A stretch of DNA of 64,000 nt from assembly GCA_964537505.1 (NCBI GenBank), contig CAZICK010000002.1:5975-69974 (forward strand), given 5' to 3'. Position numbers and translations under genes: made by a program. The notes under the pieces are model-generated. The model saw only the letters and a list, made by a program, of their open reading frames with translations. It did not search any database and was not told where the DNA came from. This document shows, in pieces, positions 1 to 36,939 of this stretch. Within the stretch, counting starts at the first letter, position 1, and each line of letters starts with the position of its first letter. Source of the stretch: an uncultured Pirellulales bacterium (lineage in GTDB: Bacteria; Planctomycetota; Phycisphaerae; Sedimentisphaerales; SM23-30).

Positions 1-245
1 ATCCATCATTTATTAAAGGGTTAGCGATAAAATAATCGGTCCGTCGCTGATTGATCTCGTCGTATCACGATTGTCTCTGTGCCAACCACAACTGTCAACA
101 GAAACATTGTCCTGGGACATCGGGCCTGATGATCAGTTGGCTGTGAGATACAACGACGGCGAATCTCGCCGCCGCCGCGGGTGGGCATGACAACATCCAA
201 CAACCTGATCCTGGAGATTTCATCCAATATGCGGCGATATGGAAC

Positions 246-319
246 CGTCCCCGGCGGGATTCGAACCCACAACCTCTGGCTCCGGAGGCCAGCGCTCTAT
301 CCAATTGGGCTACGGGGAC
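246..319 (-). tRNA. tRNA-Arg (anticodon CCG)
   Basis: Hand-folded cloverleaf on the reverse strand. Acceptor GTCCCCG/CGGGGAC, anticodon stem CTGGC/GCCAG with loop CTCCGGA, T-arm GTGGG-TTCGAAT-CCCGC. 74 nt, CCA not encoded. Confidence 0.9.
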
Positions 320-398
320 AGACAGTCTTATCTTATATGGTTTATTCGTAAAAAGCGACTATAATTTTTCGGTGGCCGGGAATTGAACAGCAAATAAT

Positions 399-490
399 AT
401 TGATGTTGGTGTCAAAAGTCGATATTCACGCCTAAAAACGCCATTTGGGCGTCAGAATCGACGTTTAACCATCCTTTTGGCGATGTCGTA
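399..490 (-). repeat. Dispersed ~92-nt intergenic element, copy 1 (5' box degenerate)
   Basis: The reverse complement reads ...tcgattctgacgcccaaatggcgtttttaggcgtgaatatcgacttttgacaccaacatcaat. It aligns with copies at 13742, 14069, 21549 and 56549. It lies about 80 bp upstream of tRNA-Arg in the same orientation. Confidence 0.6.
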
Positions 491-669
491 ACAATTGGCC
501 CTGCCGGGGATTATCATGCCCATTTTGCGGAATCGCCGCAAAATTGATGATGTGCTTGAAATATTGAACTTTAAGGACATAATTGCTCGGCGGCGGTGTA
601 GTGTCGCAAAAGATGTCTTTGAAGGCCGGTGATGGTGGTCAGATATGAACGAAAACCGTTTTTGCCATA

Positions 670-3668: not shown

Positions 3669-3850
3669 TAGTTCAACTCCTAAACCGGCAAGGGCCGGAA
3701 CCAAACAGGGTTATGTGAGAATTTGTATTGAGGTAAATATTTTGTGACCATTTTGCGCACAAATCCACTTGTAAGAGACTAAACTATACTATAATTAGTC
3801 CCCGCAGGATACCGGATTTGCCCAGCCAAAGCAAGGGCCATTTGTACATA

Positions 3851-13367: not shown

Positions 13368-13733
13368 TCACGTTATGCGAAAAACAGAATCGTCGATAAT
13401 TTCGCCGCAGTAGATACATGCCGCATGTCGCGGCGAAATGCTGCGCTGACAGTTAGGACAACTGACCGCCGCAGATCGCTGGTTCTTACCGTCCAACTGA
13501 CCGTCACGCATATCGATCATATAAAGCATTTCGTTAAGGTCGTCCTCGGTCAATTTGTGTTGACTCTTCATTATTTCCCACAGCGATTCATTGATCATCA
13601 AGGCCTTAGCCAGATTATCCTCCAGTATTCTCATCCGATGCTGCAGATCGGAAACCTTAGCCGCTGCCGACGAATCTGTCCGCGTGCTCGTACCGGATGC
13701 CGATAAACCGGATATTGAAAATATTCCTTTCAT
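13368..13733 (-). CDS. Hypothetical protein with coiled-coil segment and C-terminal zinc-ribbon (CPNC...CIYC)
   Basis: 121-aa ORF with an aggag RBS. CxxC-N12-CxxC motif. No family recognised. Confidence 0.5.
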   Translation of the reverse strand: MKGIFSISGLSASGTSTRTDSSAAAKVSDLQHRMRILEDNLAKALMINESLWEIMKSQHKLTEDDLNEMLYMIDMRDGQLDGKNQRSAAVSCPNCQRSISPRHAACIYCGEIIDDSVFRIT

Positions 13734-13741
13734 AGCAAACT

Positions 13742-13833
13742 CCTGATATTGGCGTCAAAAGTCGATACCCACACCCAAAAAACGCCTTTCGGATAACAGG
13801 ATCAGTGCTTTAAAATACTTTTGGCGCTGACAC
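13742..13833 (-). repeat. Dispersed ~92-nt intergenic element, copy 2
   Basis: The reverse complement reads gtgtcagcgccaaaagtattttaaagcactgatcctgttatccgaaaggcgttttttgggtgtgggtatcgacttttgacgccaatatcagg. Its 3' end runs into the RBS of the 13733 gene. Confidence 0.6.
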
Positions 13834-13884
13834 CCTCATTGTAGCGATTCCCCCATCAAATTGAAACAAAAACCGACCAGCGTA

Positions 13885-13990
13885 CCCTAGCCGAGGCTGT
13901 GCGTTCACCCATGCAGATCAATGTGACCGTCCCATTGACCGGCGTTACAGTCAAAGCCGGCTCGGACGAGCCGTGGCAGGAACGAGAATA
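13885..13990 (+). pseudogene. Orphan 3' fragment (last ~35 codons plus stop) of a B-type cassette gene
   Basis: cctagccgaggctgtgcgttca... matches the B1 tail (17727 onward). ...tgtgaccgtcccattgaccggcg..cagtcaaagccggctcggacgagccgtggcaggaacg.gaatag matches the B2 tail (21404-21471). No upstream coding sequence precedes it. Confidence 0.8.
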
Positions 13991-14068
13991 GCCCCTGAGG
14001 CGCCCAGGGCCTGACGGCGATCTTTGTGTGACATTGCCCACATCCAATAAGTCGCGAATCTGTAAGTT

Positions 14069-14162
14069 TTGACGCCGACATCAAAGGTATTTTGGAGTTT
14101 TGATTCTGGGACCAAAACGGCATTTTCGGACGTTAGTATCAACTTTTGAGACCAACATCAAT
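14069..14162 (+). repeat. Dispersed ~92-nt intergenic element, copy 3
   Basis: ttgacgccgacatcaaaggtattttggagttttgattctgggaccaaaacggcattttcggacgttagtatcaacttttgagaccaacatcaat, immediately upstream of the A1 promoter. Confidence 0.65.
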
Positions 14163-14191
14163 TTGGAAGTTTTTCAATCACTGAAAAACAG

Positions 14192-14220
14192 TTGAGTAGT
14201 GGGCTGTAATGTTGTATGAT
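14192..14220 (+). promoter_or_regulatory. Sigma70-like promoter of cassette 1 (TTGAGT-17-TATGAT)
   Basis: Hexamers with a 17-nt spacer, 65 nt upstream of the A1 ATG. An identical motif occurs at 21673-21701 upstream of A3. Confidence 0.5.
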
Positions 14221-14284
14221 TGTACCCAGTTACCCAGTTTTGGGAATTGTTGCGATTCAGTGAGAATTATGGTTTGCCGATTAT

Positions 14285-16129
14285 ATGAAGGTGGAAGCAT
14301 CTAGTCAGTGTCGATGTGGAAGGCAGGGTGAGCGTTTGCCGGTTTGTACGGCTGCCTTTTTTTGTTTGTACTGGCTCTACGTCTGCTTACGTATTGAGCC
14401 GACTCTCATTTATCACGGTCATGGTTCGCTACTGAAGTTTCCGGTTTTTTTCGTGGACGGCTCTTTTATCAAGGGCTTTCTGGTCTGCCCTGGCGGCCTG
14501 GCTGAATGCCTTTTTGCGTTTTTGAGTCAGTTCTATTATTATTCCTGGGCAGGGGCGCTGGTCATTACCGTGACAGGATGGCTTTTTTATCTAGCGGTGG
14601 GTGCGATTGTCAGGGCCTTTACCGGTCGGGACGTTTACCTGTTGCGTTTTGCTGCCGCTGTGGGATTGCTGCTGGCCTATAATCAATACATTCACTGTCT
14701 GGAAGGAAGTATCAAGATATTGTCGGCGTTGTTGTTTGCGTTGGTTTATATCAAGATGCCGTTACGCCACGGCTGGATGCGATGGGCGGTTTTTTTATTT
14801 CTGTTTGTTTTACTTTACTGTGGGGCGGGTAACGGTGGTTTGCTTTTTGCCTGGTTCTGCGTACTGTTTGAGATCCGGCGTCGCAGGTTCATAACCGCCC
14901 TGTGGTGTTTTGTCTCCACTACGGCGGCAGCGTATATATTGGCAAATTATTTTCTCGACAGCATTTTGAGCAAAATGTGGTTGATTTTTCCAGAGGAGCA
15001 AACGCTTAACGATCCCAGAATAGCAAAAGTTGTGGTCTGGTCTTATCTGGTTTTTGCTTTAGTGGTTGTGGTGTTGACTTTTTGGCCGCGCCGGCAAGCG
15101 TCCACCGTAAAGAAAAACAAGACCGCCATGTCTGGTGAAGAAAGCTCTTCCGGCAACGCTAAACTGCGGTTGATTTTGAGCGTGTTTGTTCTGCTGGCCA
15201 TGACTATAACAATCTTTTTTTCGTTAAATCGCGTTAAAAGGTACCAATCGCAAATAACTTATTATGGCTACTACCGAAAATGGCCTGAGCTTTTACGCCT
15301 GGCGAATGGGATACCATTCGAAGAGTATAATATTTTTCTTGTTCATTACGTTAATAGAGCGCTCTTTCATACAGGAAAGCTTGGTTGTGAGATGTTTTCA
15401 TATCCACAAAGTCCGGATGCTTTTGGGGTTATCTACCAGGGACGTCGTAACTTCGTAGCCGCCGAGCAGTTTTTCGAAATCGGGTTGGTTAACGATGCGG
15501 CGCAACTGGCCCACGAATCGCTGGAAGTTTTTGGCAGCCATCCGACGACCCTGAAACAATTGGCTTTAATTAATGTCGCAAGAGAACAAACCAATGCCGC
15601 CCGCGTTTTTCTTAATGCCCTGAGCAAAGATTTGATATTCGGCCGATGGGCTCGCGATTGTCTCAAACGTCTTGAGACCGATCCGCTGCTTCTGGAAGAC
15701 GAGCGGATGCGTCGCATCAGCACATTGCGAACGATTGGTGAACCGCTCAAACCGGCCAATCTTCCAAGTGTGCAGTTCCAGAGGCTGCTGGAGCACAATG
15801 GGAAAAATAAAATGGCATTTGAATATCTGATGGCCGATTATTTGTTGAACAGGCGGCTTGAGATGTTCATAGGCCAGCTTCATCGTCTGGACGATTTTGA
15901 CTATCCGGATATTCCCCGCCATTATGAAGAAGCGATTTTGATTTACACTATGCTGACTAAAAAAACGGTTGACCTTGGGAATCGCAAGATCAACCCTGAG
16001 ACAATACGACGGTCTCGCGATTTTTATCGAATCTGTGCGATTTACGGGAATAACACACAAGCCGCGTTAGAAGAGCTGGAAAGAATGGGTTTTTCTGACA
16101 CATATTTCTTCTATTACAGTTTCCAATAA
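14285..16129 (+). CDS. Cassette protein A1: polytopic membrane protein with C-terminal helical-repeat domain (uncharacterised)
   Basis: 614 aa. The N-terminal ~300 aa has many hydrophobic helices (e.g. AAFFCLYWLYVCL, WAGALVITVTGWLFYLAVGAIV, LLFAWFCVLFEI). The C-terminal ~320 aa looks alpha-helical and TPR-like. Paralogous to 18005, 21772 and 25354. Confidence 0.85.
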   Translation: MKVEASSQCRCGRQGERLPVCTAAFFCLYWLYVCLRIEPTLIYHGHGSLLKFPVFFVDGSFIKGFLVCPGGLAECLFAFLSQFYYYSWAGALVITVTGWLFYLAVGAIVRAFTGRDVYLLRFAAAVGLLLAYNQYIHCLEGSIKILSALLFALVYIKMPLRHGWMRWAVFLFLFVLLYCGAGNGGLLFAWFCVLFEIRRRRFITALWCFVSTTAAAYILANYFLDSILSKMWLIFPEEQTLNDPRIAKVVVWSYLVFALVVVVLTFWPRRQASTVKKNKTAMSGEESSSGNAKLRLILSVFVLLAMTITIFFSLNRVKRYQSQITYYGYYRKWPELLRLANGIPFEEYNIFLVHYVNRALFHTGKLGCEMFSYPQSPDAFGVIYQGRRNFVAAEQFFEIGLVNDAAQLAHESLEVFGSHPTTLKQLALINVAREQTNAARVFLNALSKDLIFGRWARDCLKRLETDPLLLEDERMRRISTLRTIGEPLKPANLPSVQFQRLLEHNGKNKMAFEYLMADYLLNRRLEMFIGQLHRLDDFDYPDIPRHYEEAILIYTMLTKKTVDLGNRKINPETIRRSRDFYRICAIYGNNTQAALEELERMGFSDTYFFYYSFQ

Positions 16130-16142
16130 TCCGGTGATTTAG

Positions 16143-16239
16143 TTTTGGTGCGATTTCGCTTGCGCGGCTCTACGTGTCGCACTTTTTCTTGTGTGTTGCT
16201 TATACGCAAAGTTGTGTCGAAAAAACCGCGAGAGTTAAG
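16143..16239 (+). mobile_element. 97-bp MITE-like insertion between A1 and B1, with a hairpin+T5 core
   Basis: Absent from the otherwise collinear A3/B3 junction (23601-23625). Flanked by imperfect direct repeats, ttagttttgg / taaggtttgg. The 66-nt core recurs at 44317-44382. Confidence 0.5.
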
Positions 16240-16249
16240 GTTTGGTAAA

Positions 16250-17833
16250 ATGAATAAATATCGCCGCTATCTGCTTTTGCCGATTACAGTTGCCATATTG
16301 GCTATTGTTTCGCTCTATTGTATTCTCTCTGCTGCGGACCAACCTGTCCACGACGCCACTTTAATTGACCGATCTCCCCTGATTTGCCCTGACTACACGA
16401 ATACGGCCATTCCCCCGAATATCGCACCGCTGAACTTCACAGTGGATGAACCTGGCAGGCGATATTATGTCAGGATATACTCAGATAATGGCAAAGATAT
16501 TAACATCTACAGCAAGAAACCGCAGATAGTGATCCCCCTGAAACCATGGAGAGAGCTGTTGCACCTCAACCGAGGGAATAAACTGTATTTTGATGTGTGC
16601 CTCGAAGATGAAAATGGTCAATGGCGGCGGTTCTCCCCTGTTACCAACATGATCGCCCCGGACGATACCGACGAATATCTGGTTTATCGGCTCATCAAAT
16701 CAATATATCAGGACTGGTTTGACACAGGTATTTACCAACGACATCTGTCAAGCTATGACGAGTCGGTCGTGCTGCGTGGGCTAAGTTTCAGGGAACAAAA
16801 CTCCGGAGGTTGCGTTAACTGCCATGCGTTTTGTAATAATCAAACAGATAAGATGACGATCGGCATCCGGGATGAGAATTATGGTGTTTCCACGCTGCTG
16901 TCCCAAAACGGTAAGGTAGCCAAGATCGGCACCAAGTTTGGTTATACCGCCTGGCACCCCAGCGGGCAGATAATCGTGTATTCGCTGAACAATGTGCGGC
17001 AATTCTTCCACATGACCGGAGTAGAGATCAGGGATGTAGTCGATCTCGATTCGGCTTTGGCGTACTATGACCTCAAATCGCAAACAGTCAAGATGCCTCC
17101 ACAACTGGCTGACAAATCTCGGTTGGAAACTTATCCGACCTGGTCTCCGGACGGCCGGTATTTGTATTTTTGCAGTGCGCCGATGTTATGGTCCGATCAC
17201 AATAAAGTGCCGCCAACAAACTTCGAAAAACTACGCTACGATCTTGTTCGAATCAGCTATGATATTGACACGGATAGCTGGGGTCAGCTTGAAACAGTTC
17301 TTTCCGCCGGCCAGACACACAAAAGTATTCTGCTGCCCCGAATTTCACCGGACGGGCGATTCCTGATGTTTTGTATGTGCGATTATGGCTGCTTCCCCAT
17401 CTATCAGCCCAGCAGTGACTTGTGTATGATGGACCTGGAAGCCGCCCGACAAACGGGCAATTTTACTTACCGTCGCCTTGAAGTCAACAGTGACCGGAGC
17501 GAGTCATGGCATTGTTGGTCGAGCAATGGACGGTGGGTAGTTTTCAGCAGTAAAAGACGTGATGGAGTCTTCACACGCAGTTACATCAGCTATGTAGATG
17601 AGGATGGCAAGGTATATAAGCCACTGCTGCTGCCACAGAAGGATCCCGCCTTCTACGATTCGTTCCTGAAAACGTACAGTGTTCCTGAATTTGTCATAGA
17701 ACCAGTTCGGACCCGGGAAAAAGACCTAGCCGAGGCTGTGCGTTCATCCGCTCAAATCGATGTGGCTATGCCCCTGACCGGCGCCACCCAGAAGGCCGGT
17801 CCATCCGATCCCTGGCAACAAGATCGGGAATAG
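16250..17833 (+). CDS. Cassette protein B1: N-terminally anchored CxxCH (c-type heme motif) / PD40 beta-propeller protein (uncharacterised)
   Basis: 527 aa from the ATG homologous to the B3 start. The 35-codon extension in the ORF track is translated repeat DNA. Anchor LLLPITVAILAIVSLYCIL, GGCVNCH motif, TolB-like repeats TWSPDGRYLYF, RISPDGRFLMF, WSSNGRWVVFSSKR. Confidence 0.85.
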   Translation: MNKYRRYLLLPITVAILAIVSLYCILSAADQPVHDATLIDRSPLICPDYTNTAIPPNIAPLNFTVDEPGRRYYVRIYSDNGKDINIYSKKPQIVIPLKPWRELLHLNRGNKLYFDVCLEDENGQWRRFSPVTNMIAPDDTDEYLVYRLIKSIYQDWFDTGIYQRHLSSYDESVVLRGLSFREQNSGGCVNCHAFCNNQTDKMTIGIRDENYGVSTLLSQNGKVAKIGTKFGYTAWHPSGQIIVYSLNNVRQFFHMTGVEIRDVVDLDSALAYYDLKSQTVKMPPQLADKSRLETYPTWSPDGRYLYFCSAPMLWSDHNKVPPTNFEKLRYDLVRISYDIDTDSWGQLETVLSAGQTHKSILLPRISPDGRFLMFCMCDYGCFPIYQPSSDLCMMDLEAARQTGNFTYRRLEVNSDRSESWHCWSSNGRWVVFSSKRRDGVFTRSYISYVDEDGKVYKPLLLPQKDPAFYDSFLKTYSVPEFVIEPVRTREKDLAEAVRSSAQIDVAMPLTGATQKAGPSDPWQQDRE

Positions 17834-17910
17834 CATTGCCGGTTTCGGTGCAGGTGCATGAATATCATACGCAACACACAGCGGTTTTTGTGAAATCGGT
17901 GAGTATGCTG

Positions 17911-17939
17911 TTGAATAATTATTCATGGTATTGTACAAT
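17911..17939 (+). promoter_or_regulatory. Sigma70-like promoter of cassette 2 (TTGAAT-17-TACAAT)
   Basis: 66 nt upstream of the A2 ATG. A homologous motif lies upstream of A4. Confidence 0.5.
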
Positions 17940-18004
17940 CGTCCCCAATAGCTTACTGGTCAGTATTGCCGGCGCCGGTAGCAGCGAAATTTACCGGAGG
18001 ATGA

Positions 18005-19897
18005 ATGAAGGTAATAGAGCCTATTCAGTGCAAATATATACGGCAAAGTGTTTTTTTGCCGGTTTGTACGGCTGCCTTTTTTGGCTTGTACTGGCTCTAC
18101 CTCTGCTTGCGTATTGAGCCGACCCTGATTTATCATAGTCACGGTCTGTTGCTGAGATTTCCTGTTTTTTCCGCGGATTGGGCTTTCATCGAGAGTTTCC
18201 TGTCTCGGCCGGGAGGTCTGGTCGAATGCCTTTTTGCGTTTTTGAGTCAGTTCTATTATTATTCCTGGGCCGGGGCGATGGTCATTACCCTGATAGGGTG
18301 GCTTTTTTATCTGTCGATTGGTGCGTTTGTCAGGGCCTTTACCGGGCGGGACGTTTACCTGCTGCGTTTTGTTCCCGCTGTCGGATTGCTGCTAGCCTAT
18401 AATCAATACATTCACTGTCTGGAAGGAAGCATCAAGGTATTGCTGGCGTTGTTGTTTGCGTTGGTTTATATCAAGATGCCGTTGCGCCGCGGGTGGATGC
18501 GGTGGACGGTTTTTTTACTGCTGTCTGCTTTACTTTATTGTGGGGCTGGTACCGGTGGTTTGCTTTTTGCCTGGTTTTGCGGACTATTTGAGATTCGGCG
18601 TCGCAGGTTCGTGACCGCCCTGTGGTGTTTTGTCTGTGCTACGGCGGCGGCATATATATTGGCAAATTATTTTCTCGACAGCCTTTTGAGCAGAATGTGG
18701 TTGATTTTTCCGATGGAGCAATCGCTCGATGATTCGCGAATAGCGAATATTACGATTTGGTCTTATCTGGTTTTTGCGTTGTCGGTACTGGTGATGGTGT
18801 TTTGGCCGCGGCGGAAAATCGTGGTGGCGCAGATCAACGAGAATAAGGCAGATCACAAAAACAGGCGATTCCCCCCGATAAGATGGTATGTCAGTTTCCG
18901 AACAAGTAAGTTCAAATTGGTTTTTCAATGGCTGATTTTGCTGATCGTGAGCGCAACGGCTGTATTTTTTTCGTTTGATCGCAGCAATATGGTTGGTCAC
19001 CGGGTATTATATTATGCGTATTACCGGAAGTGGCCTGAGTTGTTGCGCGATGCGCAGCAGGTGCCGCGTGAAAAATATAATATGGTTCTTAACTGTCAGA
19101 TTGACCGAGCTTTGTTTCATACCGGAGAGCTTACTAGCAGGCTGTTTTCTTATCCGCAAAGACCACAGGGGCTTTTGGGCGTTCGCCTGCAGTCCCACTA
19201 TTTGATAGCCGCCGAGTTGTTTCTGGAACTCGGCCTGGTTAACGATGCGGAGCACCTGGCCCATGAGTCGCTGGAAATCTACGGCAGTCATCCGATGAAC
19301 CTGAAGCAATTAGCTCTGATCAATATTGCCAAAGGTCAGAGTGATACGGCACGTGTTTTTCTCCGTGCGATGAGCAGGGATTTGGTGTTCGGTCGATGGG
19401 CCCTCGACTGCCTGGAACGGCTCGAAAAAAAACAGCTTCCGGCCGACGAGCGGATACGCCGGATCAATCCGTTTATAATTGTAAATGATGGGTTAAGTGT
19501 AAGTACCTTTTTTAATGTGGATGAGATATTAGGAAAACTGCTGCGTCATAATCCGAAAAACCGAATGGCATACGAATATCTGATGAGCTGGTACTTGTTG
19601 ACCAACCAACTTGATATGTTTGCCAAAAATGTCCATCGTTTGGACGATTTTGACTATCTTGGTATTCCCCGGCATTACGAAGAGGCGATCCTTTGCCACA
19701 ATGCGATGACTGGAACCTGGATTAATCTCGGGAATCGCAAGATCAGCCGCCAGACAGCTCAGCGATTTGAGGATTTTGTGGCTATGAGCATAACTTACAG
19801 AAACGATCCGAAAAAAGCACGAAAGATGCTGGTAAAGGATTTTGGCGATACGTATTACTACTATTACTCGTTCGGCCATTTGGAAGAGGCAAAATGA
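18005..19897 (+). CDS. Cassette protein A2 (paralog of A1)
   Basis: 630 aa with a ggagga RBS. The membrane core is nearly identical to the other A copies. The stop overlaps the B2 start (ATGA). Confidence 0.85.
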   Translation: MKVIEPIQCKYIRQSVFLPVCTAAFFGLYWLYLCLRIEPTLIYHSHGLLLRFPVFSADWAFIESFLSRPGGLVECLFAFLSQFYYYSWAGAMVITLIGWLFYLSIGAFVRAFTGRDVYLLRFVPAVGLLLAYNQYIHCLEGSIKVLLALLFALVYIKMPLRRGWMRWTVFLLLSALLYCGAGTGGLLFAWFCGLFEIRRRRFVTALWCFVCATAAAYILANYFLDSLLSRMWLIFPMEQSLDDSRIANITIWSYLVFALSVLVMVFWPRRKIVVAQINENKADHKNRRFPPIRWYVSFRTSKFKLVFQWLILLIVSATAVFFSFDRSNMVGHRVLYYAYYRKWPELLRDAQQVPREKYNMVLNCQIDRALFHTGELTSRLFSYPQRPQGLLGVRLQSHYLIAAELFLELGLVNDAEHLAHESLEIYGSHPMNLKQLALINIAKGQSDTARVFLRAMSRDLVFGRWALDCLERLEKKQLPADERIRRINPFIIVNDGLSVSTFFNVDEILGKLLRHNPKNRMAYEYLMSWYLLTNQLDMFAKNVHRLDDFDYLGIPRHYEEAILCHNAMTGTWINLGNRKISRQTAQRFEDFVAMSITYRNDPKKARKMLVKDFGDTYYYYYSFGHLEEAK

Positions 19898-21471
19898 ATA
19901 AGTTCCGCTGGTATATATTTGTGCCGATTATTGCCGCCGCCCTGGCAATTGCCTGGTTGTATTTCGTTTGGTACGACTTCGATGGACATATTGAGGATGC
20001 TACGAGAATCGCCAGGCCCGCTCAAATTCGCCCTGACTATAACAATACCGTTATTCCGCCGAATATCGCCCCGTTAAACTTCACAGTGAACGAACCCGGC
20101 AGGCGATACTATGTCAGAATATACTCGGATCAGGGCAATGGTATTGACATTTATAGCAGAAAACCGCAGATAGTAATTCCGCCAAAACGCTGGAGAGAAT
20201 TGCTCCGTCTCAATCCCAAAGGCACGTTGTATTTTGATGTTTGTCTCGAAGATAAAAATGGTCAATGGCAGCGGTTTGCCCCTATTACCAATACAATTGC
20301 CGAGCCTGATATAGACGAATACCTGGTCTATCGGCTTATTAAACCGGTGTACAATATCTGGTACGAGATGGGCATTTACCAACGCCATCTGGCCAGCTAC
20401 GACCAATTACCGGTATTGCGCGGACGGACGTTCGTGAAAAATGAGGCCGGGGGCTGTGTCAACTGCCATACGTTTTGTAATAACCGGACGGATAAAATGA
20501 CCATAGGCGTGCGCAGCGACTACGGCGCTTTTGCCCTACTTGCACAGGGTGACGAGATAGCTAAAATCGGGACGAAAATCAGCTATACCGCCTGGCATCC
20601 AAGTGGGCGGCTCATAACGTATTCTATGAACAAAGTACAGTTGTTTTGCCACCTGGCGGGGGTCGAAATACGTGATGTGGTTGATCTCGATTCGGCTCTG
20701 GCGTGCTATTATCCCGAATCGCAGACGGTTAAGATACCACCGCAGTTTCGGGGAAAAGATCGGCTGGAAACTTATCCAGCCTGGTCACCGGACGGTTGCT
20801 TTCTATATTTTTGCAGTGCGCCGATCTTGTGGTCCGATCGTAACAAGATGCCGCCGAAGAACTATGAAAAGGTTCGTTATGATCTCGTGCGAGTTAGTTA
20901 TGATCTCGACAGTGACACCTGGGGCCAGATCGAAACCATCATTTCCGGTAGGCAAACCGGCAAAAGTATTATGCTGCCCCGAATTTCGCCGGATGGTCGA
21001 TTTCTGATGTTTTGTATGTGCGATTACGGCTGTTTTCCCATCTATCAACCCAGCAGTGACCTGTATATGATGGACCTGGAAGCCGCTCGACAAACGGGCA
21101 ATTTTACTTACCGCCGTCTGGAGGTCAACAGTGATCGGAGTGAGTCATGGCATTGTTGGTCGAGCAACGGACGATGGGTGGTTTTCAGCAGTAAAAGACG
21201 CGACGGAGTTTTCACACGCAGTTACATCAGCTATGTGGACGAAGATGGCAAGGTATATAAGCCACTGCTGCTGCCTCAAAAAGACCCGGATTTTTACGAT
21301 TCATTTCTCAAGACGTACAGTGTTCCCGAATTTGTCGTAGAACCAGTTCGGACCCGGGAAAAAGACCTGGTTGATGCTGTGCGTTCGCCAATTCAGATCG
21401 ATGTGACCGTCCCATTGACCGGCGCCACAGTCAAAGCCGGCTCGGACGAGCCGTGGCAGGAACGGGAATAG
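19894..21471 (+). CDS. Cassette protein B2 (CxxCH / PD40 propeller)
   Basis: 525 aa with GGCVNCHTFCNN, AWSPDGCFLYF, RISPDGRFLMF, SSNGRWVVF. 4-nt overlap with A2. Confidence 0.85.
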   Translation: MNKFRWYIFVPIIAAALAIAWLYFVWYDFDGHIEDATRIARPAQIRPDYNNTVIPPNIAPLNFTVNEPGRRYYVRIYSDQGNGIDIYSRKPQIVIPPKRWRELLRLNPKGTLYFDVCLEDKNGQWQRFAPITNTIAEPDIDEYLVYRLIKPVYNIWYEMGIYQRHLASYDQLPVLRGRTFVKNEAGGCVNCHTFCNNRTDKMTIGVRSDYGAFALLAQGDEIAKIGTKISYTAWHPSGRLITYSMNKVQLFCHLAGVEIRDVVDLDSALACYYPESQTVKIPPQFRGKDRLETYPAWSPDGCFLYFCSAPILWSDRNKMPPKNYEKVRYDLVRVSYDLDSDTWGQIETIISGRQTGKSIMLPRISPDGRFLMFCMCDYGCFPIYQPSSDLYMMDLEAARQTGNFTYRRLEVNSDRSESWHCWSSNGRWVVFSSKRRDGVFTRSYISYVDEDGKVYKPLLLPQKDPDFYDSFLKTYSVPEFVVEPVRTREKDLVDAVRSPIQIDVTVPLTGATVKAGSDEPWQERE

Positions 21472-21548
21472 CCCCTGAGGCGCCCAGAGCCTAGCGGCGA
21501 TCTTTGTGTGACATTGCCCATATCCAATAAGTCGCGAATTTGTTAATT

Positions 21549-21642
21549 TTGACGCCAGTGTCAAAGGTATTTTGGAGTTTTGATTCTGGTATTCAAACGG
21601 CATTTTCGGACGTTAGTATCGACTTTTGAGGCCAACATCAAT
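21549..21642 (+). repeat. Dispersed ~92-nt intergenic element, copy 4
   Basis: ttgacgccagtgtcaaaggtattttggagttttgattctggtattcaaacggcattttcggacgttagtatcgacttttgaggccaacatcaat. Confidence 0.65.
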
Positions 21643-21672
21643 TTGGAAGTTTTTTCAATCACTGAAAAACAG

Positions 21673-21701
21673 TTGAGTAGTGGGCTGTAATGTTGTATGA
21701 T
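21673..21701 (+). promoter_or_regulatory. Sigma70-like promoter of cassette 3 (TTGAGT-17-TATGAT)
   Basis: Same sequence as 14192-14220. Confidence 0.5.
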
Positions 21702-21771
21702 TGTACCCAGTTACCCAGTTTTGGGAATTGTTGCGATTCAGTGAGAATTATGGTTTGCCGATTATACGAAA

Positions 21772-23601
21772 GTGGAAGCACTTAGTCAATGTCGATGTGG
21801 GAAGCATGGACCGGTTTGTACAGCTTCCTTTTTTGGTCTGTACTGGCTCTACGTCTGCTTACGTATTGAGCCGACTCTCATTTATCACGGCCATGTTTCG
21901 CTGCTGAAGTTTCCAGTTTTTTCCCTGGACTGGGCTTTTGTAGAAGACTTGCTGGTCTGCCCTGGCGGCCTGTCTGAATGCCTTTTTGCGTTTTTGAGTC
22001 AGTTCTATTATTATTCCTGGGCAGGGGCGCTGGTCATTACCGTGACAGGATGGCTTTTTTATCTAGCGGTGGGTGCGATTGTCAGGGCCTTTACCGGTCG
22101 GGACGTTTACCTGTTGCGTTTTGCTGCCGCTGTGGGATTGCTGCTGGCCTATAATCAATACATTCACTGTCTGGAAGGAAGTATCAAGATATTGCTGGCG
22201 TTGTTGTTTGCGTTGGTTTATATCAAGATGTCGTTGCTCCGCGGGTGGACGCGATGGACGGTTTTTTTGTTACTGTCTGCTTTACTTTATTGCGGGGCCG
22301 GTACCGGTGGTTTGCTTTTTGCCTGGTTCTGCGTACTGTTTGAGATTCGGCGTCGCAGGTTCATAACCGCCCTGTGGTGTTTTGTCTCCACTACGGCGGC
22401 GGCGTATATATTGGCAAATTATTTTCTCGACAGCAATCAGAGTAGAATGTGGTTGATTTTTCCAGAGGTGCAAACGTTTGAGGATCCAAGAATAGCAAAA
22501 GTTGTGGTCTGGTCTTATCTGGTTTTTGCTTTAGTGGTTGTGGTGTTGACTTTTTGGCCGCGCCGGCAAGCGTCCACCGTAAAGAAAAACAAGACCGCCA
22601 TGTCTGGTGAAGAAAGCTCTTCCGGCAACGCTAAACTGCGGTTGATTTTGAGCGTGTTTGTTCTGCTGGCCATGACTATAACAATCTTTTTTTCGTTAAA
22701 TCGCGTTAAAAGGTACCAATCGCAAATAACTTATTATGGCTACTACCGAAAATGGCCTGAGCTTTTACGCCTGGCGAATGGGATACCATTCGAAGAGTAT
22801 AATATTTTTCTTGTTCATTACGTTAATAGAGCGCTCTTTCATACAGGAAAGCTTGGTTGTGAGATGTTTTCATATCCACAAAGTCCGGATGCTTTTGGAG
22901 CCATCTACAAGGGGAGCCGTAACTGCGTAGCCACTGAGCAGTTTTTCGAAATCGGGTTGGTTAACGATGCGGCGCACTTGGCCTACCAGTCGCTGGAAAG
23001 ATTTGGCAGCCATCCGACGACCCTGAAACAATTGGCTTTGATTAATGTCGCAAGAGAACAAACCAATGCCGCCCGCGTTTTTCTTAATGTCTTGAGCAAA
23101 GATTTGATATTCGGCCGATGGGCGCGCGATTGTCTCAAACGTCTTGAGACAGATCCGCTGCTTCTGGAAGACGAGCGGATGCGTCGCATCAGCACATTGC
23201 GAACGGTTGATGACCCGCTCAGAGCGGTCAATATTCCTGGTATGCAGTTACAGGTATTGCTGGAACACAATGGGGAAAATAAAATGGCATTTGAATATCT
23301 GATGGCCGATCATTTGTTGAACAGGCGGCTTGAGATGTTCCTGACCCAGCTTCATCGTCTGGACGATTTTGACTATCCGGATATTCCCCGCCATTATGAA
23401 GAAGCGATTTTGATTTACACTATGCTGACTAAAAAAACGGTTGACCTTGGGAATCGCAAGATCAACCCTGAGACAATACGACGGTCTCGCGATTTTTATC
23501 GAATCTGTGCGATTTACGGGAATAACACGCAAGCCGCGTTAGAAGAGCTGGAAAGAATGGGTTTTTCTGATACATATTTCTTCTATTATAGTTTCCAATA
23601 A
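21772..23601 (+). CDS. Cassette protein A3 (paralog of A1; GTG start)
   Basis: 609 aa. The ATG of A1 is ACG here, so the GTG two codons downstream is the first available start. Long tracts are identical to A1. Confidence 0.8.
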   Translation: MEALSQCRCGKHGPVCTASFFGLYWLYVCLRIEPTLIYHGHVSLLKFPVFSLDWAFVEDLLVCPGGLSECLFAFLSQFYYYSWAGALVITVTGWLFYLAVGAIVRAFTGRDVYLLRFAAAVGLLLAYNQYIHCLEGSIKILLALLFALVYIKMSLLRGWTRWTVFLLLSALLYCGAGTGGLLFAWFCVLFEIRRRRFITALWCFVSTTAAAYILANYFLDSNQSRMWLIFPEVQTFEDPRIAKVVVWSYLVFALVVVVLTFWPRRQASTVKKNKTAMSGEESSSGNAKLRLILSVFVLLAMTITIFFSLNRVKRYQSQITYYGYYRKWPELLRLANGIPFEEYNIFLVHYVNRALFHTGKLGCEMFSYPQSPDAFGAIYKGSRNCVATEQFFEIGLVNDAAHLAYQSLERFGSHPTTLKQLALINVAREQTNAARVFLNVLSKDLIFGRWARDCLKRLETDPLLLEDERMRRISTLRTVDDPLRAVNIPGMQLQVLLEHNGENKMAFEYLMADHLLNRRLEMFLTQLHRLDDFDYPDIPRHYEEAILIYTMLTKKTVDLGNRKINPETIRRSRDFYRICAIYGNNTQAALEELERMGFSDTYFFYYSFQ

Positions 23602-23624
23602 TCCGGTGACTTAGGTTTTGTAAA

Positions 23625-25208
23625 ATGAATAAATATCGCCGCTATCTGCTTTTGCCGATTACCGTTGCCATATTGGCTATTGTTCCGCTCTATTGTATTC
23701 TGTCTGCTGCGGACCAACCTGTCCACGACGCCACTTTAATTAACCGATCTCCCCTGATTCGCCCTGACTACACGAATACGGCCATTCCCCCGAACATCGC
23801 ACCGCTGAACTTCACAGTGGACGAACCCGCCAGGCGATATTATGTCAGGATATACTCGGATAATGGCAAAGATATTAACATCTACAGCAAGAAACCGCAG
23901 ATAGTGGTCCCCCTGAAACCATGGAGAGAGCTGTTGCACTTCAACCGAGGGAATAAACTGTATTTTGATGTCTGCCTCGAAGATGAAAATGGTCAATGGC
24001 GGCGGTTCTCCCCTGTTACCAACACGATCGCCCCGGACGATACCGACGAATATTTGGTTTATCGGCTCATCAAACCACTGTACGGTAACTGGTTTGACAC
24101 AGGTATTTACCAGCGTCACCTGGTTAACTACGATCAGTTACCTGTTTTGCGCGGTCGGAGCTTCAGGAAACAAAACGACGGAGCTTGCGTTAACTGCCAT
24201 GCGTTTTGTAATAATCGAACAGATAAGATGACGATCGGCGTGCGGAGCTGGGATTATGGTATCTCTACGCTGTTGTCCCAAAACGGCACAGTGAGCGAGA
24301 TGGACGTCAAGTTCGGTTATACCGCCTGGCACCCCAGCGGTCGGATAATCGTGTATTCGATGAACGATGTGCAGCAATTCTTCCACATGACCGGAGTAGA
24401 GATCAGGGATGTAGTCGATCTCGATTCGGCTTTGGCGTACTATGACCTCAAATCGCAAACAGTCAAGATGCCTCCACAACTGGCTGACAAATCTCGGTTG
24501 GAAACTTATCCGACCTGGTCTCCGGACGGCCGGTATTTGTATTTTTGCAGTGCGCCGATGTTATGGTCCGATCACAATAAAGTGCCGCCAACAAACTTCG
24601 AAAAACTACGCTACGATCTTGTTCGAATCAGCTATGATATTGACACGGATAGCTGGGGTCAGCTTGAAACAGTTCTTTCCGCCGGCCAGACACACAAAAG
24701 TATTCTGCTGCCCCGAATTTCACCGGACGGGCGATTCCTGATGTTTTGTATGTGCGATTATGGCTGCTTCCCCATCTATCAGCCCAGCAGTGACTTGTGT
24801 ATGATGGACCTGGAAGCCGCCCGACAAACGGGCAATTTTACTTACCGTCGCCTTGAAGTCAACAGTGATCGGAGCGAGTCATGGCATTGTTGGTCGAGCA
24901 ACGGACGGTGGGTAGTTTTCAGCAGTAAAAGGCTTGACGGAGTTTTTATACGCAGTTACATCAGCTATGTGGACGAAGACGGCAAGGTGTATAAGCCACT
25001 GCTGCTGCCTCAAAAAGATCCGGATTTTTACGACACATTTCTGAAGACCTACACTGTTCCTGAATTTGTCGTAGAACCAGTTCGGATCCGGGAAAAAAAA
25101 CTAGCTGATGCTGTGCGTTCACCCGCTCAAATCGATGTGTCTATGCCCCTGACCGGTGCCACCCAGAAGGTCGGTCCGCCCGATTCCTGGCAGCAAAAGC
25201 AGGAATAG
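23625..25208 (+). CDS. Cassette protein B3 (CxxCH / PD40 propeller)
   Basis: 527 aa with GACVNCHAFCNN. The central ~170 aa are identical to B1. Confidence 0.85.
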   Translation: MNKYRRYLLLPITVAILAIVPLYCILSAADQPVHDATLINRSPLIRPDYTNTAIPPNIAPLNFTVDEPARRYYVRIYSDNGKDINIYSKKPQIVVPLKPWRELLHFNRGNKLYFDVCLEDENGQWRRFSPVTNTIAPDDTDEYLVYRLIKPLYGNWFDTGIYQRHLVNYDQLPVLRGRSFRKQNDGACVNCHAFCNNRTDKMTIGVRSWDYGISTLLSQNGTVSEMDVKFGYTAWHPSGRIIVYSMNDVQQFFHMTGVEIRDVVDLDSALAYYDLKSQTVKMPPQLADKSRLETYPTWSPDGRYLYFCSAPMLWSDHNKVPPTNFEKLRYDLVRISYDIDTDSWGQLETVLSAGQTHKSILLPRISPDGRFLMFCMCDYGCFPIYQPSSDLCMMDLEAARQTGNFTYRRLEVNSDRSESWHCWSSNGRWVVFSSKRLDGVFIRSYISYVDEDGKVYKPLLLPQKDPDFYDTFLKTYTVPEFVVEPVRIREKKLADAVRSPAQIDVSMPLTGATQKVGPPDSWQQKQE

Positions 25209-25258
25209 CATTGCAGATTTGCGTGTATGGGTATAGCTCAATCGTCATGAGTATGCTG

Positions 25259-25288
25259 TTGAATAATTGTTCATGATATTGTTATAAT
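25259..25288 (+). promoter_or_regulatory. Sigma70-like promoter of cassette 4 (TTGAAT-18-TATAAT)
   Basis: 66 nt upstream of the A4 ATG. Homologous to the A2 upstream region. Confidence 0.5.
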
Positions 25289-25353
25289 CGGTCCCAGTGG
25301 CTTAATCTCCAGTATTGTCGGCGTCAGTAACAACGAAGTTTACCGGAGGATGA

Positions 25354-27252
25354 ATGAAGGTGATAGAGCCTGTTCAGTGCAAATATATACGGCAGAGTAT
25401 TTGTTTGCCGGGCTGTACCGCTGTTTTTTTCGGCTTGTATTATCTTTACGTTTACCTGTGTATCGAACCAACACTTATTTATCATGGTCATATCTTTAAT
25501 CTGAAGTTTCCAGTTTTTTTCGTGGACGGCTTTTTTATCAGGAGTTTCCTGGTCCGCCCGGGCGGTTTTACTGAATGCCTGTCAGCATTTTTGAGCCAGT
25601 TCTATTATTATTCCTGGGCAGGAGCGATGGTCATTACCCTGATAGGTTGGCTTTATTATTTGGCGGTAGGTGCGCTTGTCAGGGCCTTTACCGGGCGGGA
25701 TGTTTACCTGCTGCGTTTTGTCCCCGCCGTCGGATTACTGCTGGCCTATAATCAATACATTCACTGTCTGGAAGGAAGCATCAAGATATTGTTGGTATTG
25801 TTGTTTGCATTGGTTTATGTCAAGATGCCGTTGCACCGCGGGTGGATGCGGTGGACGGTTTTTTTGCTGCTGTCTGCCTTACTTTATTGCGGGGCCGGTA
25901 CCGGTGGTTTGCTTTTTGCCTGGTTCTGCGTGCTTTTCGAGATTCGCAGGCGCAGGTTTATAACCGCCCTGTGGTGTTTTGTCTGTGCTACGGCGGCGGC
26001 GTATATATTGGCAAATTATTTTCTCGACAGCCTTTTGAGCAGAATGTGGTTGATTTTTCCGATGGAGCAATCGCTCGATGATTCGCGAATAGCGAATATT
26101 ACGATTTGGTCTTATCTGGTTTTTGGTTTGATGGTAATGGTAATGACCTTTTTGCCGCGGCCCCAGACGGCGACCGCAAAGGTCAACAAAAGCAGTTCCG
26201 GCGGCACAAGCAGGCATTCGTCGTCCACCGGGTTAGCCGTTAAAGACCAGAAAAGTAAAATGCCGTTTGTTATTCGATGGTCGGTCTTACTTGCCATAAC
26301 AGCGGCAATCATCTTTTTCACGTTCGATCGCACAGAAAAAAAACGCTTGCGAATATATTATTACGGATACCACCGAAAGTGGCCTGAGCTTTTACGCCAG
26401 GCGCGTGGGATACCAGTTGAAGAGTATAATTTTTTTCTTATTTCTTACATTAATAGAGCGCTCTTCTATACCGGCAAGCTTAGTTGTGAGATGTTTTCAT
26501 ATCCTCAAACAAGCAGCGGACGTGTTATCATGTCGCAAGGTCGTGTTCGTCTGGCAAACGTCGGGCTGCGTTTCGAACTCGGATTGGTTAACGATGCTGA
26601 GCAGTTGGCACATGAATCGCTCGAACTTTTTGGCAGTCATCCGATGACGCTGAAGCAACTGGCTTTGATCAACATTGCCAAAGGCCAAACCGAGACAGCC
26701 TGCATTTTTCTTGGCGCTCTAAGCAAGGATTTGATATTCGGCCGGTGGGCTCGCGATTGTCTCAAACGTCTTGAGATCGATCCGCTGCTCATGGAAGACG
26801 AGCAAATTCGTCAAATCAGAACATTCATTGTTACCACAGAGCCGTTGGAACGGGTCGATATTTTCACAGTGCAGTTGCAAAAACTGCTTCAATACAATAT
26901 GAAAAATAAAATGGCATACGAATATCTGATGGCGGATCATTTGTTGAACAAGTGGTTTGATGCCTTCGTCAAGCATATCCGGTATCTGGACAATTTTGGC
27001 TATGAGGATATCCCTCGTCATTATCAGGAAGCCATTCTGGTTTATACCGCCCAGACTGGAAAACCCATTGATCTCGGAAACCGCAAGATCGCCTACGAGA
27101 CTAAGCGACGGTTCGATGATTTCAGGAATATCGTTAGAGCTAACAAGAACGAGCCGGTAACCAAACAAAAAGTATTGTTAAAGGATTTTTCCGATACCTA
27201 CTACTATTATTGTTATTTTACGAGTATCGATGATTCAGGACGGGCAAGATGA
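25354..27252 (+). CDS. Cassette protein A4 (paralog of A2)
   Basis: 632 aa with a ggagga RBS. The stop overlaps the B4 start (ATGA). Confidence 0.85.
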   Translation: MKVIEPVQCKYIRQSICLPGCTAVFFGLYYLYVYLCIEPTLIYHGHIFNLKFPVFFVDGFFIRSFLVRPGGFTECLSAFLSQFYYYSWAGAMVITLIGWLYYLAVGALVRAFTGRDVYLLRFVPAVGLLLAYNQYIHCLEGSIKILLVLLFALVYVKMPLHRGWMRWTVFLLLSALLYCGAGTGGLLFAWFCVLFEIRRRRFITALWCFVCATAAAYILANYFLDSLLSRMWLIFPMEQSLDDSRIANITIWSYLVFGLMVMVMTFLPRPQTATAKVNKSSSGGTSRHSSSTGLAVKDQKSKMPFVIRWSVLLAITAAIIFFTFDRTEKKRLRIYYYGYHRKWPELLRQARGIPVEEYNFFLISYINRALFYTGKLSCEMFSYPQTSSGRVIMSQGRVRLANVGLRFELGLVNDAEQLAHESLELFGSHPMTLKQLALINIAKGQTETACIFLGALSKDLIFGRWARDCLKRLEIDPLLMEDEQIRQIRTFIVTTEPLERVDIFTVQLQKLLQYNMKNKMAYEYLMADHLLNKWFDAFVKHIRYLDNFGYEDIPRHYQEAILVYTAQTGKPIDLGNRKIAYETKRRFDDFRNIVRANKNEPVTKQKVLLKDFSDTYYYYCYFTSIDDSGRAR

Positions 27253-28832
27253 ATAAATACCGCTGTTACCAGTTCTCGTTGATCGCCGTGGCGGCATTGG
27301 CAGCCACTTTGCTGTATTACTTTTTATGCGATTCCAACTGGTCCGTCGATGGTGCAACTATGATTGATCGGCCTGCTCACATCCGCCCTGATTATACGGA
27401 CACTGTCATTCCGCCGAACATTGCGCCTTTGAACTTCGTAGTAAAAGAGCCCGGCAGGCGATATTATGTGAGGGTACACTCGACCCGAGGCTGCGATATC
27501 AACATACACAGCAAAAAGGCCTCTATAGTTATCCCTACAAAACCCTGGAAGCAATTGCTGCAAGACAACCAGGCGGATAAGTTGTATTTCGATGTTTATG
27601 TTGAGAACAATGATGGCGTGTGGAAGCGATTTGGCTCCATTACCAATAAGATTTCCCAGGTTGCTATAGACGACTATTTGGTTTATCGGCTCATCAAACC
27701 ACTATATTATAACTGGTTCGACGTAGGTATTTACCAACGGCATCTGCCAAGCTACGACGAGTCGGCCGTGCTTCGTGGTCAAAGTTTCGGGAAACAAAAT
27801 GAAGGAGGATGTGTCAACTGCCACTCCTTTTGTAATAATCGGGCAGATAAGATGACGATAGGCATCCGGGACAGTAATTATGGTGCTCCTACATTGCTGG
27901 CCCAAAACGGTAAGGTAACCAAGATCGCAACCAAGTTCGGTTATACCGCCTGGCACCCCACCGGTCGAATAGTAATATATTCACTAAACAAAGTGCGGCA
28001 GTTTTTTCACATGAAGGGCCTGGAGGTTCGGGATGTGCTTGATCTCGATTCTGCTTTGGCGTACTATGATCTCAAGTCGAAAACAGTCAAGGCGCCCCCA
28101 CAACTGATCGACAAATCTCGGCTGGAAACTTATCCGACATGGTCTCCGGACGGCTGTTATTTGTATTTTTGCAGTGCGCCGATGTTATGGTCCGATCGCG
28201 ATAAAGTGCCGCAAAAAGACTTTGAAAAAGTACGCTATGATCTCATGCGAGTCAGCTATGATATTGACACGGATAGCTGGGGCCAGCTTGAAACAGTTCT
28301 TACCGCCGAGGAAACGGGCAAAAGTATTATGCTGCCCCGAATCTCTCCGGACGGCCGATTCCTGATGTTTTGTATGTGCGATTACGGCTGTTTTCCCATT
28401 TATCAGCCCAGCAGCGACTTGTATATGATGGACCTTGAAGCCGCTCGACAAACGGGCAATTTTGCTTATCGTCGCCTGGAGGTCAATAGTGATCGGTGCG
28501 AGTCATGGCATTGTTGGTCGAGCAACGGACGATGGGTTGTTTTTAGCAGTAAAAGGCGTGGCGGAGTTTTCACACGCAGTTATATCAGCTACGTAGATGA
28601 GGATGGTGAGGTGTATAAACCCCTGCTACTGCCCCAAAAGGATCCCACTTTCTACGATTCGTTCCTCAAAACGTACAGTGTTCCTGAATTTGTCGTAGAA
28701 CCCGTTCAAACCAGGGAAAAAGACCTGGCCTACGCTGTGTGTTCACCCGCTCAAATCGAAGTAACCCTGCCGCTGACCGGCGCTACTCCGAAAGCCGGCC
28801 CTTCCGATACCTGGCAACAAGATCGGGAATAA
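27249..28832 (+). CDS. Cassette protein B4 (CxxCH / PD40 propeller)
   Basis: 527 aa with GGCVNCHSFCNN, TWSPDGCYLYF, RISPDGRFLMF, SSNGRWVVF. Confidence 0.85.
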   Translation: MNKYRCYQFSLIAVAALAATLLYYFLCDSNWSVDGATMIDRPAHIRPDYTDTVIPPNIAPLNFVVKEPGRRYYVRVHSTRGCDINIHSKKASIVIPTKPWKQLLQDNQADKLYFDVYVENNDGVWKRFGSITNKISQVAIDDYLVYRLIKPLYYNWFDVGIYQRHLPSYDESAVLRGQSFGKQNEGGCVNCHSFCNNRADKMTIGIRDSNYGAPTLLAQNGKVTKIATKFGYTAWHPTGRIVIYSLNKVRQFFHMKGLEVRDVLDLDSALAYYDLKSKTVKAPPQLIDKSRLETYPTWSPDGCYLYFCSAPMLWSDRDKVPQKDFEKVRYDLMRVSYDIDTDSWGQLETVLTAEETGKSIMLPRISPDGRFLMFCMCDYGCFPIYQPSSDLYMMDLEAARQTGNFAYRRLEVNSDRCESWHCWSSNGRWVVFSSKRRGGVFTRSYISYVDEDGEVYKPLLLPQKDPTFYDSFLKTYSVPEFVVEPVQTREKDLAYAVCSPAQIEVTLPLTGATPKAGPSDTWQQDRE

Positions 28833-31563: not shown

Positions 31564-31980
31564 AACGCTCAGTTTGGGTTTTATGCTCATAACGATTGAG
31601 TTTCCCTGTTTTTTTTATTATGTATTTACTTATCCTGAAAGCCGTTATAGTTGGCCCTGCCAGGAATTATCATACCCATTGGGTAAACTTTCCAACTGGG
31701 ATTGGTTAGCCAATCCCAGTTGGAAGTTGGCATCAAATTTCAGTCGGGACTCAATGGTTGATTTGCGCGAGATTCTTCCGGTAAGGGCGATTTTTTTTGG
31801 GTCATTTTTGATATAATCAAGTGGCTTAATATGTCCGATACCCACCGTATAGGCATTAGCTGTGTTTTGTCTTACAATTGTTTTTTCGGCAAGCGTAACG
31901 CGTAACATGTTGCGGTATAAGTGGTTACGGTAAACGGCGATTTTGGCACGGTTTTCTATAGCAAAGGAAGGCGAGAGGAT

Positions 31981-35637: not shown

Positions 35638-35649
35638 GGCAATTAGTCA

Positions 35650-35854
35650 GGATGCGGTTAAAAAGATTTCTGGCAATCACAGAGGACAGAAAAATCTGCC
35701 ATCTGACTTCCGCCTTTTGACCTTTGACTTCTGCCATCTGAGACAGGTGGTTTTACAAAAAAAAGCGAGGCAAGTCATTACAACTTACCTCGCTTATCTT
35801 TTTGTCAGCTTGCCTTAATTAAAGACAAACCAAACTTTCGGTCATCAAACCAAA
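35650..35854 (-). repeat. 205-bp 3' flank repeat, copy 1 (near-identical to 36940-37144)
   Basis: Both copies read ggatgcggttaaaaagatttctggcaatcacagaggacagaaaaatctgccatctgacttccgcc...ttaattaaagacaaaccaaac. Confidence 0.85.
35757..35793 (-). terminator. Intrinsic terminator of PEP-CTERM gene 1
   Basis: The minus strand reads gcgaggtaagt-tgtaatga-cttgcctcgc followed by T8. Confidence 0.65.
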
Positions 35855-36535: not shown

Positions 36536-36550
36536 AATAATCACTTCCTC

Positions 36551-36715: not shown

Positions 36716-36939
36716 AATCTTAAACGTTCCAAAGGGGACAATTAGCCCGCATATTTCATACCCCTTGGCGAAATGTGACCTAACTTTTTGTTAATAAAGA
36801 AATTACACATATAACCCAAAATTACACCCTGTAAATTACCACAAAATCACAAAAACACCATAACATTTTTAATATAAAGCAGTTACATTCTCCAAGACCT
36901 CTGTGCCCTTGTGACTATGAAATATTCGGGGGTTAGCCC

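Follow-up and report, generated by a model that had tools for sequence, protein, structure and literature searches.

Copies of the repeat in the window

The window, by which we mean the whole 64,000-nt stretch of DNA analysed, carries at 14071-14159 (+ strand) an 89-bp repeat of subfamily B (defined below), located 125 nt upstream of a DUF6057 gene (14285-16129). This copy, whose locus is L031 among the collected loci, is flanked by AGTTTT (14065-14070) and AATTTG (14160-14165), which are identical at four of six positions. The region 14285-28832 comprises four tandem gene pairs, each encoding a DUF6057 membrane protein (about 610-630 aa) and a PD40 beta-propeller protein (about 525-560 aa). 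The pairs are arranged as two 7.48-kb units, with which the 14071 copy was duplicated, and what is left of a fifth PD40 gene, 93 nt from its 3' end, is found upstream at 13886-13978. The copy at 21551-21639 (+ strand, 89 bp; flanks AATTTT and AATTTG, 5/6 identical) lies in the same segmental duplication, in which 13886-14328 corresponds to 21366-21809 with 90-95% identity. Since both copies are carried within this 7.48-kb duplication, they represent one insertion rather than two, and the elements at 14069 and 21549 that the sequence-only reading had counted separately are paralogues and not independent.

The copy at 56551-56639 (+ strand, 89 bp) sits between divergent response-regulator genes and is bounded by a perfect direct repeat, TAACTT (56545-56550 and 56640-56645). 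The remaining full-length copies are older and have poor flanking repeats. One of them, at 402-490 (- strand, 89 bp), is upstream of the tRNA-Arg gene (245-320, minus strand) and has a degenerate 5' terminal repeat (TACGACATCGCC) and the flanks AATTGT and AATATT, 4/6 identical. The other, at 13745-13834 (- strand, 90 bp), is degenerate with the 5' terminal repeat GGTGTCAGCGCC, and its flanks agree at 1/6 positions. The 3' end of the latter abuts the AGGAG ribosome-binding site of a 121-aa gene, 13368-13733 (- strand), ending one base before it (window 13739-13745); because the copy adjoins this site, transcription of the gene must be expected to start in the element or to pass through it. The gene encodes a zinc-ribbon protein and heads an ispG (GcpE) gene cluster.

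A profile built from these five full-length copies was run on the window with nhmmer and recovered exactly the same five (393-499(-), 13735-13842(-), 14061-14170(+), 21542-21649(+) and 56541-56648(+)), with E-values from 6e-28 to 8e-31, all below 1e-27. A 27-nt core pattern, TTTTNNGNNGTNNNTATCRAYTTTTGA, also matched these five copies, compared with 0.00 matches expected from 100 shuffles. The presence of a dispersed repeat, as previously claimed, is thus confirmed at all five places, with five full-length copies in 64 kb against none expected by chance, plus one half-copy. The internal landmarks TATTTTG, TTGATTC, GGCGTTTTT and GTGAATATCGA were found as described, and so was the perfect 16-bp palindrome TTGACGCCGGCGTCAA at 56549-56564.

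The half-copy differs from the description given earlier. A shortened copy had been placed at 61349-61408 on the plus strand, where the profile gave no significant match, but a remnant of the 5' half does exist on the minus strand at 61318-61362 (GACGCCAGTGTCAAATATGGGG...GGTTGATTCTGCCAAAT). The minus-strand match covers 61318-61368 (E=0.004, profile search of the window) and reads from 61362 down to about 61318. The remnant is directly upstream of, and points at, a sigma-54 activator gene (59938-61296, minus strand). Its strand had been misassigned because the end of the element is palindromic.

Other repeats were also observed in the window. A second dispersed intergenic repeat of about 100 nt, unrelated to the 89-bp element, is present in inverted orientation at 3690-3790(+) and 51940-52040(-) with about 80% identity; another mobile element, a shared promoter or an RNA are candidates for its nature. 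A third, of about 110 nt, occurs at 31580-31690(+) and 59740-59845(-), also inverted and about 79% identical, and its second copy abuts tRNA-Leu (59847-59929). A 66-nt inverted repeat (16148-16213 and 44317-44382, 89% complementary) links the beginning of one PD40 gene to the region where a PEGA-domain gene (44400-44801, minus strand) starts, and is probably a shared N-terminal or signal-peptide coding segment. In addition, two adjacent paralogous genes for PEP-CTERM proteins (35855-36583 and 37145-37960, minus strand) produce stretches of 85-99% identity about 1.29 kb apart within 35643-37747.

Terminal inverted repeats and target-site duplication

The consensus sequences of both subfamilies are exactly 89 bp long and end in 17-nt imperfect terminal inverted repeats (TIRs), 5'-GACGCCAGCGTCAAAAG ... 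CTTTTGACG(CCAA/GTTC)C(A/G)TC-3'. The 5' end, GACGCCAGCGTCAAAAG, matches the reverse complement of the 3' end at 14 of 17 positions in subfamily A and 13 of 17 in subfamily B. Hence the repeat itself stands as first noticed while its limits do not: instead of about 92 nt, the element measures 89 bp (90 in the degenerate copy). With about 29 codons it is non-coding and too short to encode a transposase.

When 55 copies were aligned, the bases outside GACGCC... and ...C(G/A)TC were alike on the two sides of a given copy but different between copies, for example TAAGTT|element|TAAGTT, AAAGTA|...|AAAGTA, AATTAA|...|AATTAA and AAACTT|...|AAACTT. This 6-bp AT-rich direct repeat is perfect in 21 of 57 copies and agrees at five of six positions in 11 more. 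Altogether, 251 of 342 flank positions match, against 138.6±7.6 (maximum 164) when the flanks were shuffled between copies, and only the 6-nt register gives such agreement (73% of positions, versus 27-41% for registers 3-5 and 7-9). We concluded that the flanking 6-bp repeat is a target-site duplication (TSD). The T's preceding GACG and the A's following CGTC, being part of this duplication, are host DNA, and the reconstructed target is AT-rich, roughly c|AAWNWT|a.

In a separate observation, metagenome contig L057 (7081-7100) has two tandem versions of a copy's 5' palindrome (TGACGCAAGCGTCGTT + TGACGCCAGCGTCAAAAG) when compared with the same locus in contig L096 (12745-12760), which looks like local slippage at the palindromic end.

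These results bear on the function first suggested for the repeat, namely that its two dyad boxes, separated by about 75 bp, serve as operators for a dimeric regulator. On such a reading the regulator could be of the NarL/LuxR type, and the copies would mark its regulon. Each end does contain a 7-2-7-like palindrome, TTGACGC-CA-GCGTCAA, and the one at the 5' end is very well conserved (97% of cells paired). The 56551 copy is flanked by two response regulators of the GerE type, and divergent promoter regions hold 16 of the 37 sites with called neighbours. The TTGAC...GTCAA boxes are indeed present; however, their outer TT and AA are the variable target duplication and do not belong to the element. 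The 3' TTGA-N8-TCAA box that had been assigned to all five full-length copies is complete in only three, and its last AA is contributed by the flanking DNA. Subfamily B, to which the window copies belong, has a broken 3' palindrome (GACGCCAACATC), and the pair 89-97 is kept in 22 of 55 copies. The 55-nt interior is as conserved within subfamilies as the boxes are, and the distance to the downstream gene start varies from 11 to more than 600 nt, with 7 of the 37 sites lying between convergent genes. Outside the element, stand-alone TGACG-N4-CGTCA sites (at most one mismatch) number 2 in the window against 1.7 expected, and the presence of the element varies between near-identical strains. The likeness of TTGAC-N6-GTCAA to the FNR site TTGAT-N4-ATCAA and to the 16-bp 7-2-7 heptamer pairs of NarL is superficial: the half-sites are spaced as TTGA-N8-TCAA in the element but as TTGA-N6-TCAA in FNR sites, and, unlike in those dyads, the outer bases are target duplication and stand-alone sites beyond chance are lacking in the window. 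With flanking DNA in the boxes, a degraded 3' dyad and no stand-alone boxes beyond chance in the window, we consider a pair of operators very unlikely, while some copies may have been co-opted secondarily as regulator sites.

Copies in related genomes and an empty insertion site

The scan beyond the window that had been proposed did yield further copies, in two metagenome-assembled genomes (MAGs) and in metagenome contigs. A scan of species-representative genomes with the core pattern detected 16 copies in two Planctomycetota MAGs, the remaining matches being single chance matches. The element is present on ten contigs of the MAG 'Planctomycetota bacterium UR.bin216' and on three of an 'uncultured Pirellulales' MAG. 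Scanning of metagenomes gave 73 loci, mostly from anaerobic-digester or activated-sludge and freshwater-sediment samples, and the profile search of all collected loci gave 73 matches. From these, 57 non-redundant full-length copies were obtained, window copies included, which have 46 distinct flanking contexts; several related uncultured genomes thus harbour the element, at no fewer than 46 intergenic sites in all.

Two subfamilies can be told apart, A from digesters and UR.bin216 and B from sediment and the window, with identities of 87% within A, 80% within B and 62% between A and B. Such a structure is typical of what bursts of copying would leave. A near-identical variant of the 56551 copy is found at another site, with the TSD ATTCAT, in contig L084.

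An empty site was found by way of contigs encoding exactly the response regulator beside the 56551 copy; none was found among the other collected loci. Among the matches listed, two independent assemblies, L123 (ENA ERZ27248074) and L124 (Logan SRR9617119), have an intergenic region that is 95-96 bp shorter. The alignment showed that the empty allele of ERZ27248074 and SRR9617119 reads ...TTTTTCCAC TAACTT ACGAAAA..., whereas the filled allele of the window, GCA_036732785.1 and JGI Ga0105101 reads ...CCAC TAACTT [89-bp element] TAACTT ACGAAAA.... Exactly 95 bp are missing from the former, i.e. the 89-bp element and one TAACTT, and the flanks of the two alleles are identical except for one SNP. 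The insertion is carried by the window and, among the matches listed, by nine other assemblies. This precise presence or absence of 89 + 6 bp in near-identical strains demonstrates a recent transposition.

The sequence-only reading had given a REP- or MITE-type repeat the same weight as the operators. The MITE part of this suggestion agrees with the TIRs, the variable 6-bp TSD and the empty site. A palindromic repeat of the REP or BIME type (for instance two CGTC-tagged REPs joined head to head) that had spread through a RAYT (an IS200/IS605-like tyrosine transposase) or by recombination would share with the element the short GACG...CGTC palindromes in both ends, but the architecture is different: here CGTC is inside a 4-6 bp stem, and the unit has a fixed length of 89 bp with a unique interior. 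A 6-bp TSD together with a clean empty site is what staggered-cut transposition characteristically leaves behind, and REPs are not known to carry target-site duplications. In PMC3733652, where no term for target-site duplication occurs, REPs are stem-loops of 20-40 bp whose stems measure 8-9 bp and which bear a GTAG or CGTC tag that stays unpaired. For the widespread superfamilies of CGTC-tagged REPs no dedicated transposase is known (PMC3733652), and these repeats resemble the element in being short GC-rich CGTC palindromes that are intergenic and multicopy. They are, however, single stem-loops with an unpaired tag, whereas the element has TIRs, a TSD and an empty site. A REP origin is therefore regarded as extremely unlikely.

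Analysis of RNA structure

We also considered whether the copies might be multicopy small RNA genes, as one of the earlier suggestions would have it, or a structured cis-acting RNA (a 5' or 3' UTR element, terminator or attenuator). The features in keeping with an RNA are the orientation bias relative to flanking tandem genes (11 versus 3), the better folding of some single copies as compared with shuffles (z about -2.6 to -2.9), and a short hairpin followed by a T-run in some copies, e.g. ACGCC-CAAAT-GGCGT-TTTT in the 402 copy. The single-copy folds are inconsistent, however: both strands fold about equally well, and other copies gave z from +0.3 to -1.1. The consensus obtained with RNAalifold keeps only a 4-bp hairpin in the 5' TIR (-3.55 kcal/mol, covariation term -0.03). 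A hand-built model of four helices and 21 pairs was 75.8% paired in the copies and 74.6% in shuffles, with the central hairpin paired in only 60%. Pairs with a double change numbered 7 against 7.1 after shuffling, so that the proposed check for compensatory changes revealed no excess in the alignment. The window and MAG copies had no Rfam match at the gathering threshold or at E<=10, in agreement with the earlier statement that the repeat is not a described ncRNA family. An RNA gene, moreover, does not explain the TSDs or the empty site. Lacking an Rfam match, a consensus fold and covariation, the small RNA reading appears highly improbable.

Genomic position and orientation

Every copy lies between genes. 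Crude gene calling from long ORFs gave both neighbours at 37 sites, of which 16 are between divergent genes, 11 between tandem genes with the element co-oriented, 7 between convergent genes and 3 between tandem genes with the element in the opposite orientation. By a hand tally of a different crude ORF call, the co-orientation in tandem pairs was about 15 versus 2. The 11:3 co-orientation is suggestive, being the sole feature that a purely neutral MITE does not predict, and for this reason it hints at selection on orientation or at an added function. The earlier remark that five of six copies point toward a downstream gene holds as a description but carries little weight, because three of the sites are divergent intergenic regions in which either orientation points at a gene start.

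Where a co-oriented gene lies upstream, the element begins less than 30 nt from its stop codon at 13 of 20 sites, and in several cases the stop codon is T|GA, made up of the final target T and the GA with which the element begins. Since the element begins with GA and ends with TC, such a stop can arise at either end, on the opposite strand at the other. The preference for intergenic DNA and for the vicinity of stop codons would follow from the AT-rich target.

An outward hybrid promoter, in which the TTGACG of the TIR serves as the -35 hexamer and the flank supplies the -10, was rejected: at 46 sites, -10-like hexamers at a spacing of 16-18 nt were not enriched (4 and 3 observed versus 4.9 and 3.5 in the background). 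The 56551 copy does show matches to the -35/-10 consensus on both sides. Any effect on neighbouring genes, whether by read-through or by promoter or terminator activity, would be secondary.

Search for a parent insertion sequence

Neither the window, nor about 1.1 Mb of collected loci, nor IMG/VR yielded an autonomous partner, by which we mean a transposase gene enclosed by this pair of inverted repeats. The ORFs of the window contained no transposase domain, and no RAYT gene was found there. In the collected loci, TIR-like 17-mers outside the known copies revealed no parent insertion sequence (IS), and inverted 9-mer pairs 0.5-4 kb apart in 1.09 Mb gave noise only, with no additional TIR pairs. 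A blastn search against plasmids returned no match.

Scanning of IMG/VR with the 17-mer identified, instead of the element, a phage family that shares only 22 nt with it. What these viral contigs (L106-L114, L119 and L121) have in common is TTTTGACGCCAGCGTCAAAAGCTCGCC, which agrees exactly over 22 nt with the subfamily A 5' end, and they lack the remainder of the element. The identity is probably coincidental, because it is mostly forced by the 17-mer used for the scan.

Two further candidates for a transposase were rejected. The conserved 3' subterminal stretch ...TTTTTRGGNGTNAATATCGACTTTTGA might have been a remnant of the C-terminal coding region of a transposase (..FL[D/G]VNIDF*), but the protein search gave nothing useful; a translation of the element matched a single database protein, a 65-aa ORF that lacks Pfam domains and comes from a contig of 1,372 bp, and this match is taken to be spurious. 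The genes of about 350 aa beside many copies are mutually unrelated.

Nature of the element

Taken together, we conclude with high confidence that the repeat is a miniature inverted-repeat transposable element (MITE), an 89-bp non-coding and non-autonomous DNA transposon. It has terminal inverted repeats and a fixed 6-bp TSD, is inserted at many sites, and shows insertion polymorphism with a precise empty site. Its spread into the AT-rich intergenic gaps of uncultured Planctomycetota-like bacteria is recent. As mobile DNA the element is of an ordinary kind, although the family appears to be undescribed; full-text literature searches turned up neither an account of MITEs in Planctomycetota nor any paper with the end sequences of the element.

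The element belongs to the same kind as other bacterial MITEs, i.e. Correia/NEMIS of Neisseria, RUP of Streptococcus pneumoniae, ERIC/IRU of enterobacteria, Nezha of cyanobacteria and the Tn3-derived TIMEs. With these it shares a short length (70-300 bp), the non-coding and multicopy nature, TIRs and a TSD, as well as intergenic location near gene ends, subfamilies within and between genomes, and presence/absence polymorphism among strains. No sequence similarity to any of them was detected or is known, and the element is unlike these MITEs in its 6-bp TSD, in the internal palindrome of each TIR and in its uncultured Planctomycetota-like hosts. The duplication is TA in Correia and RUP elements and 5 bp long in the Tn3 family, TIMEs included. 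Among insertion sequences, the TSD is 5-6 bp in IS1634, 6-7 bp in the ISDol1 group of ISNCY, 4-15 bp in IS481 and 4-8 bp in IS21. A 6-bp TSD would be compatible with IS1634, ISDol1-like elements, IS481 and IS21, with which the element also shares DDE-type ends bearing TIRs, and is not diagnostic of one IS family. The TIR of the element starts with GA, in contrast to IS481, with TGT ends, and IS21, with TG ends.

By analogy with such systems, a DDE transposase acting in trans presumably moves the MITE. Its gene would lie in a related, full-length insertion sequence at another place in the genome, and the enzyme would bind the 17-nt inverted repeats and then excise or copy the element. Insertion would take place by 6-bp staggered cuts, giving rise to the 6-bp TSD, and a preference for AT-rich targets would confine the element to intergenic DNA, often less than 30 nt from a stop codon or in divergent promoters. 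The two 'dyad boxes' would then be the two transposon ends, each with an internal GACG-N4-CGTC palindrome that a T-rich or A-rich target duplication would extend.

A more novel reading is that the transposase is of an uncatalogued lineage, that copies have been recruited as portable modules (regulator-binding sites, promoters or terminators) which rewire expression, or both. The former is suggested by the palindrome-containing ends, the 6-bp duplication and the lack of a recognisable parent IS, and the latter by the strongly conserved 5' GACGCCAGCGTC dyad, the excess of divergent sites and the 11:3 co-orientation; nevertheless, we think it unlikely.

Identification of the repeat as a MITE explains a conspicuous intergenic sequence that could otherwise be mistaken for the signature of a regulon or for a small RNA family, and copies of it should not be annotated as operators. 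Together, the consensus of 89 bp, its TIRs and the target c|AAWNWT|a provide a probe for strain typing and a handle for hunting the parent transposase, and they help to explain contig breaks in MAG assembly. Copies that abut a ribosome-binding site, as the 13745 copy does, or a stop codon are candidates for effects on the expression of neighbouring genes. For a poorly studied uncultured lineage of freshwater sediment, anaerobic digesters and activated sludge, the finding reveals a recently active MITE whose presence or absence differs at the level of strains.
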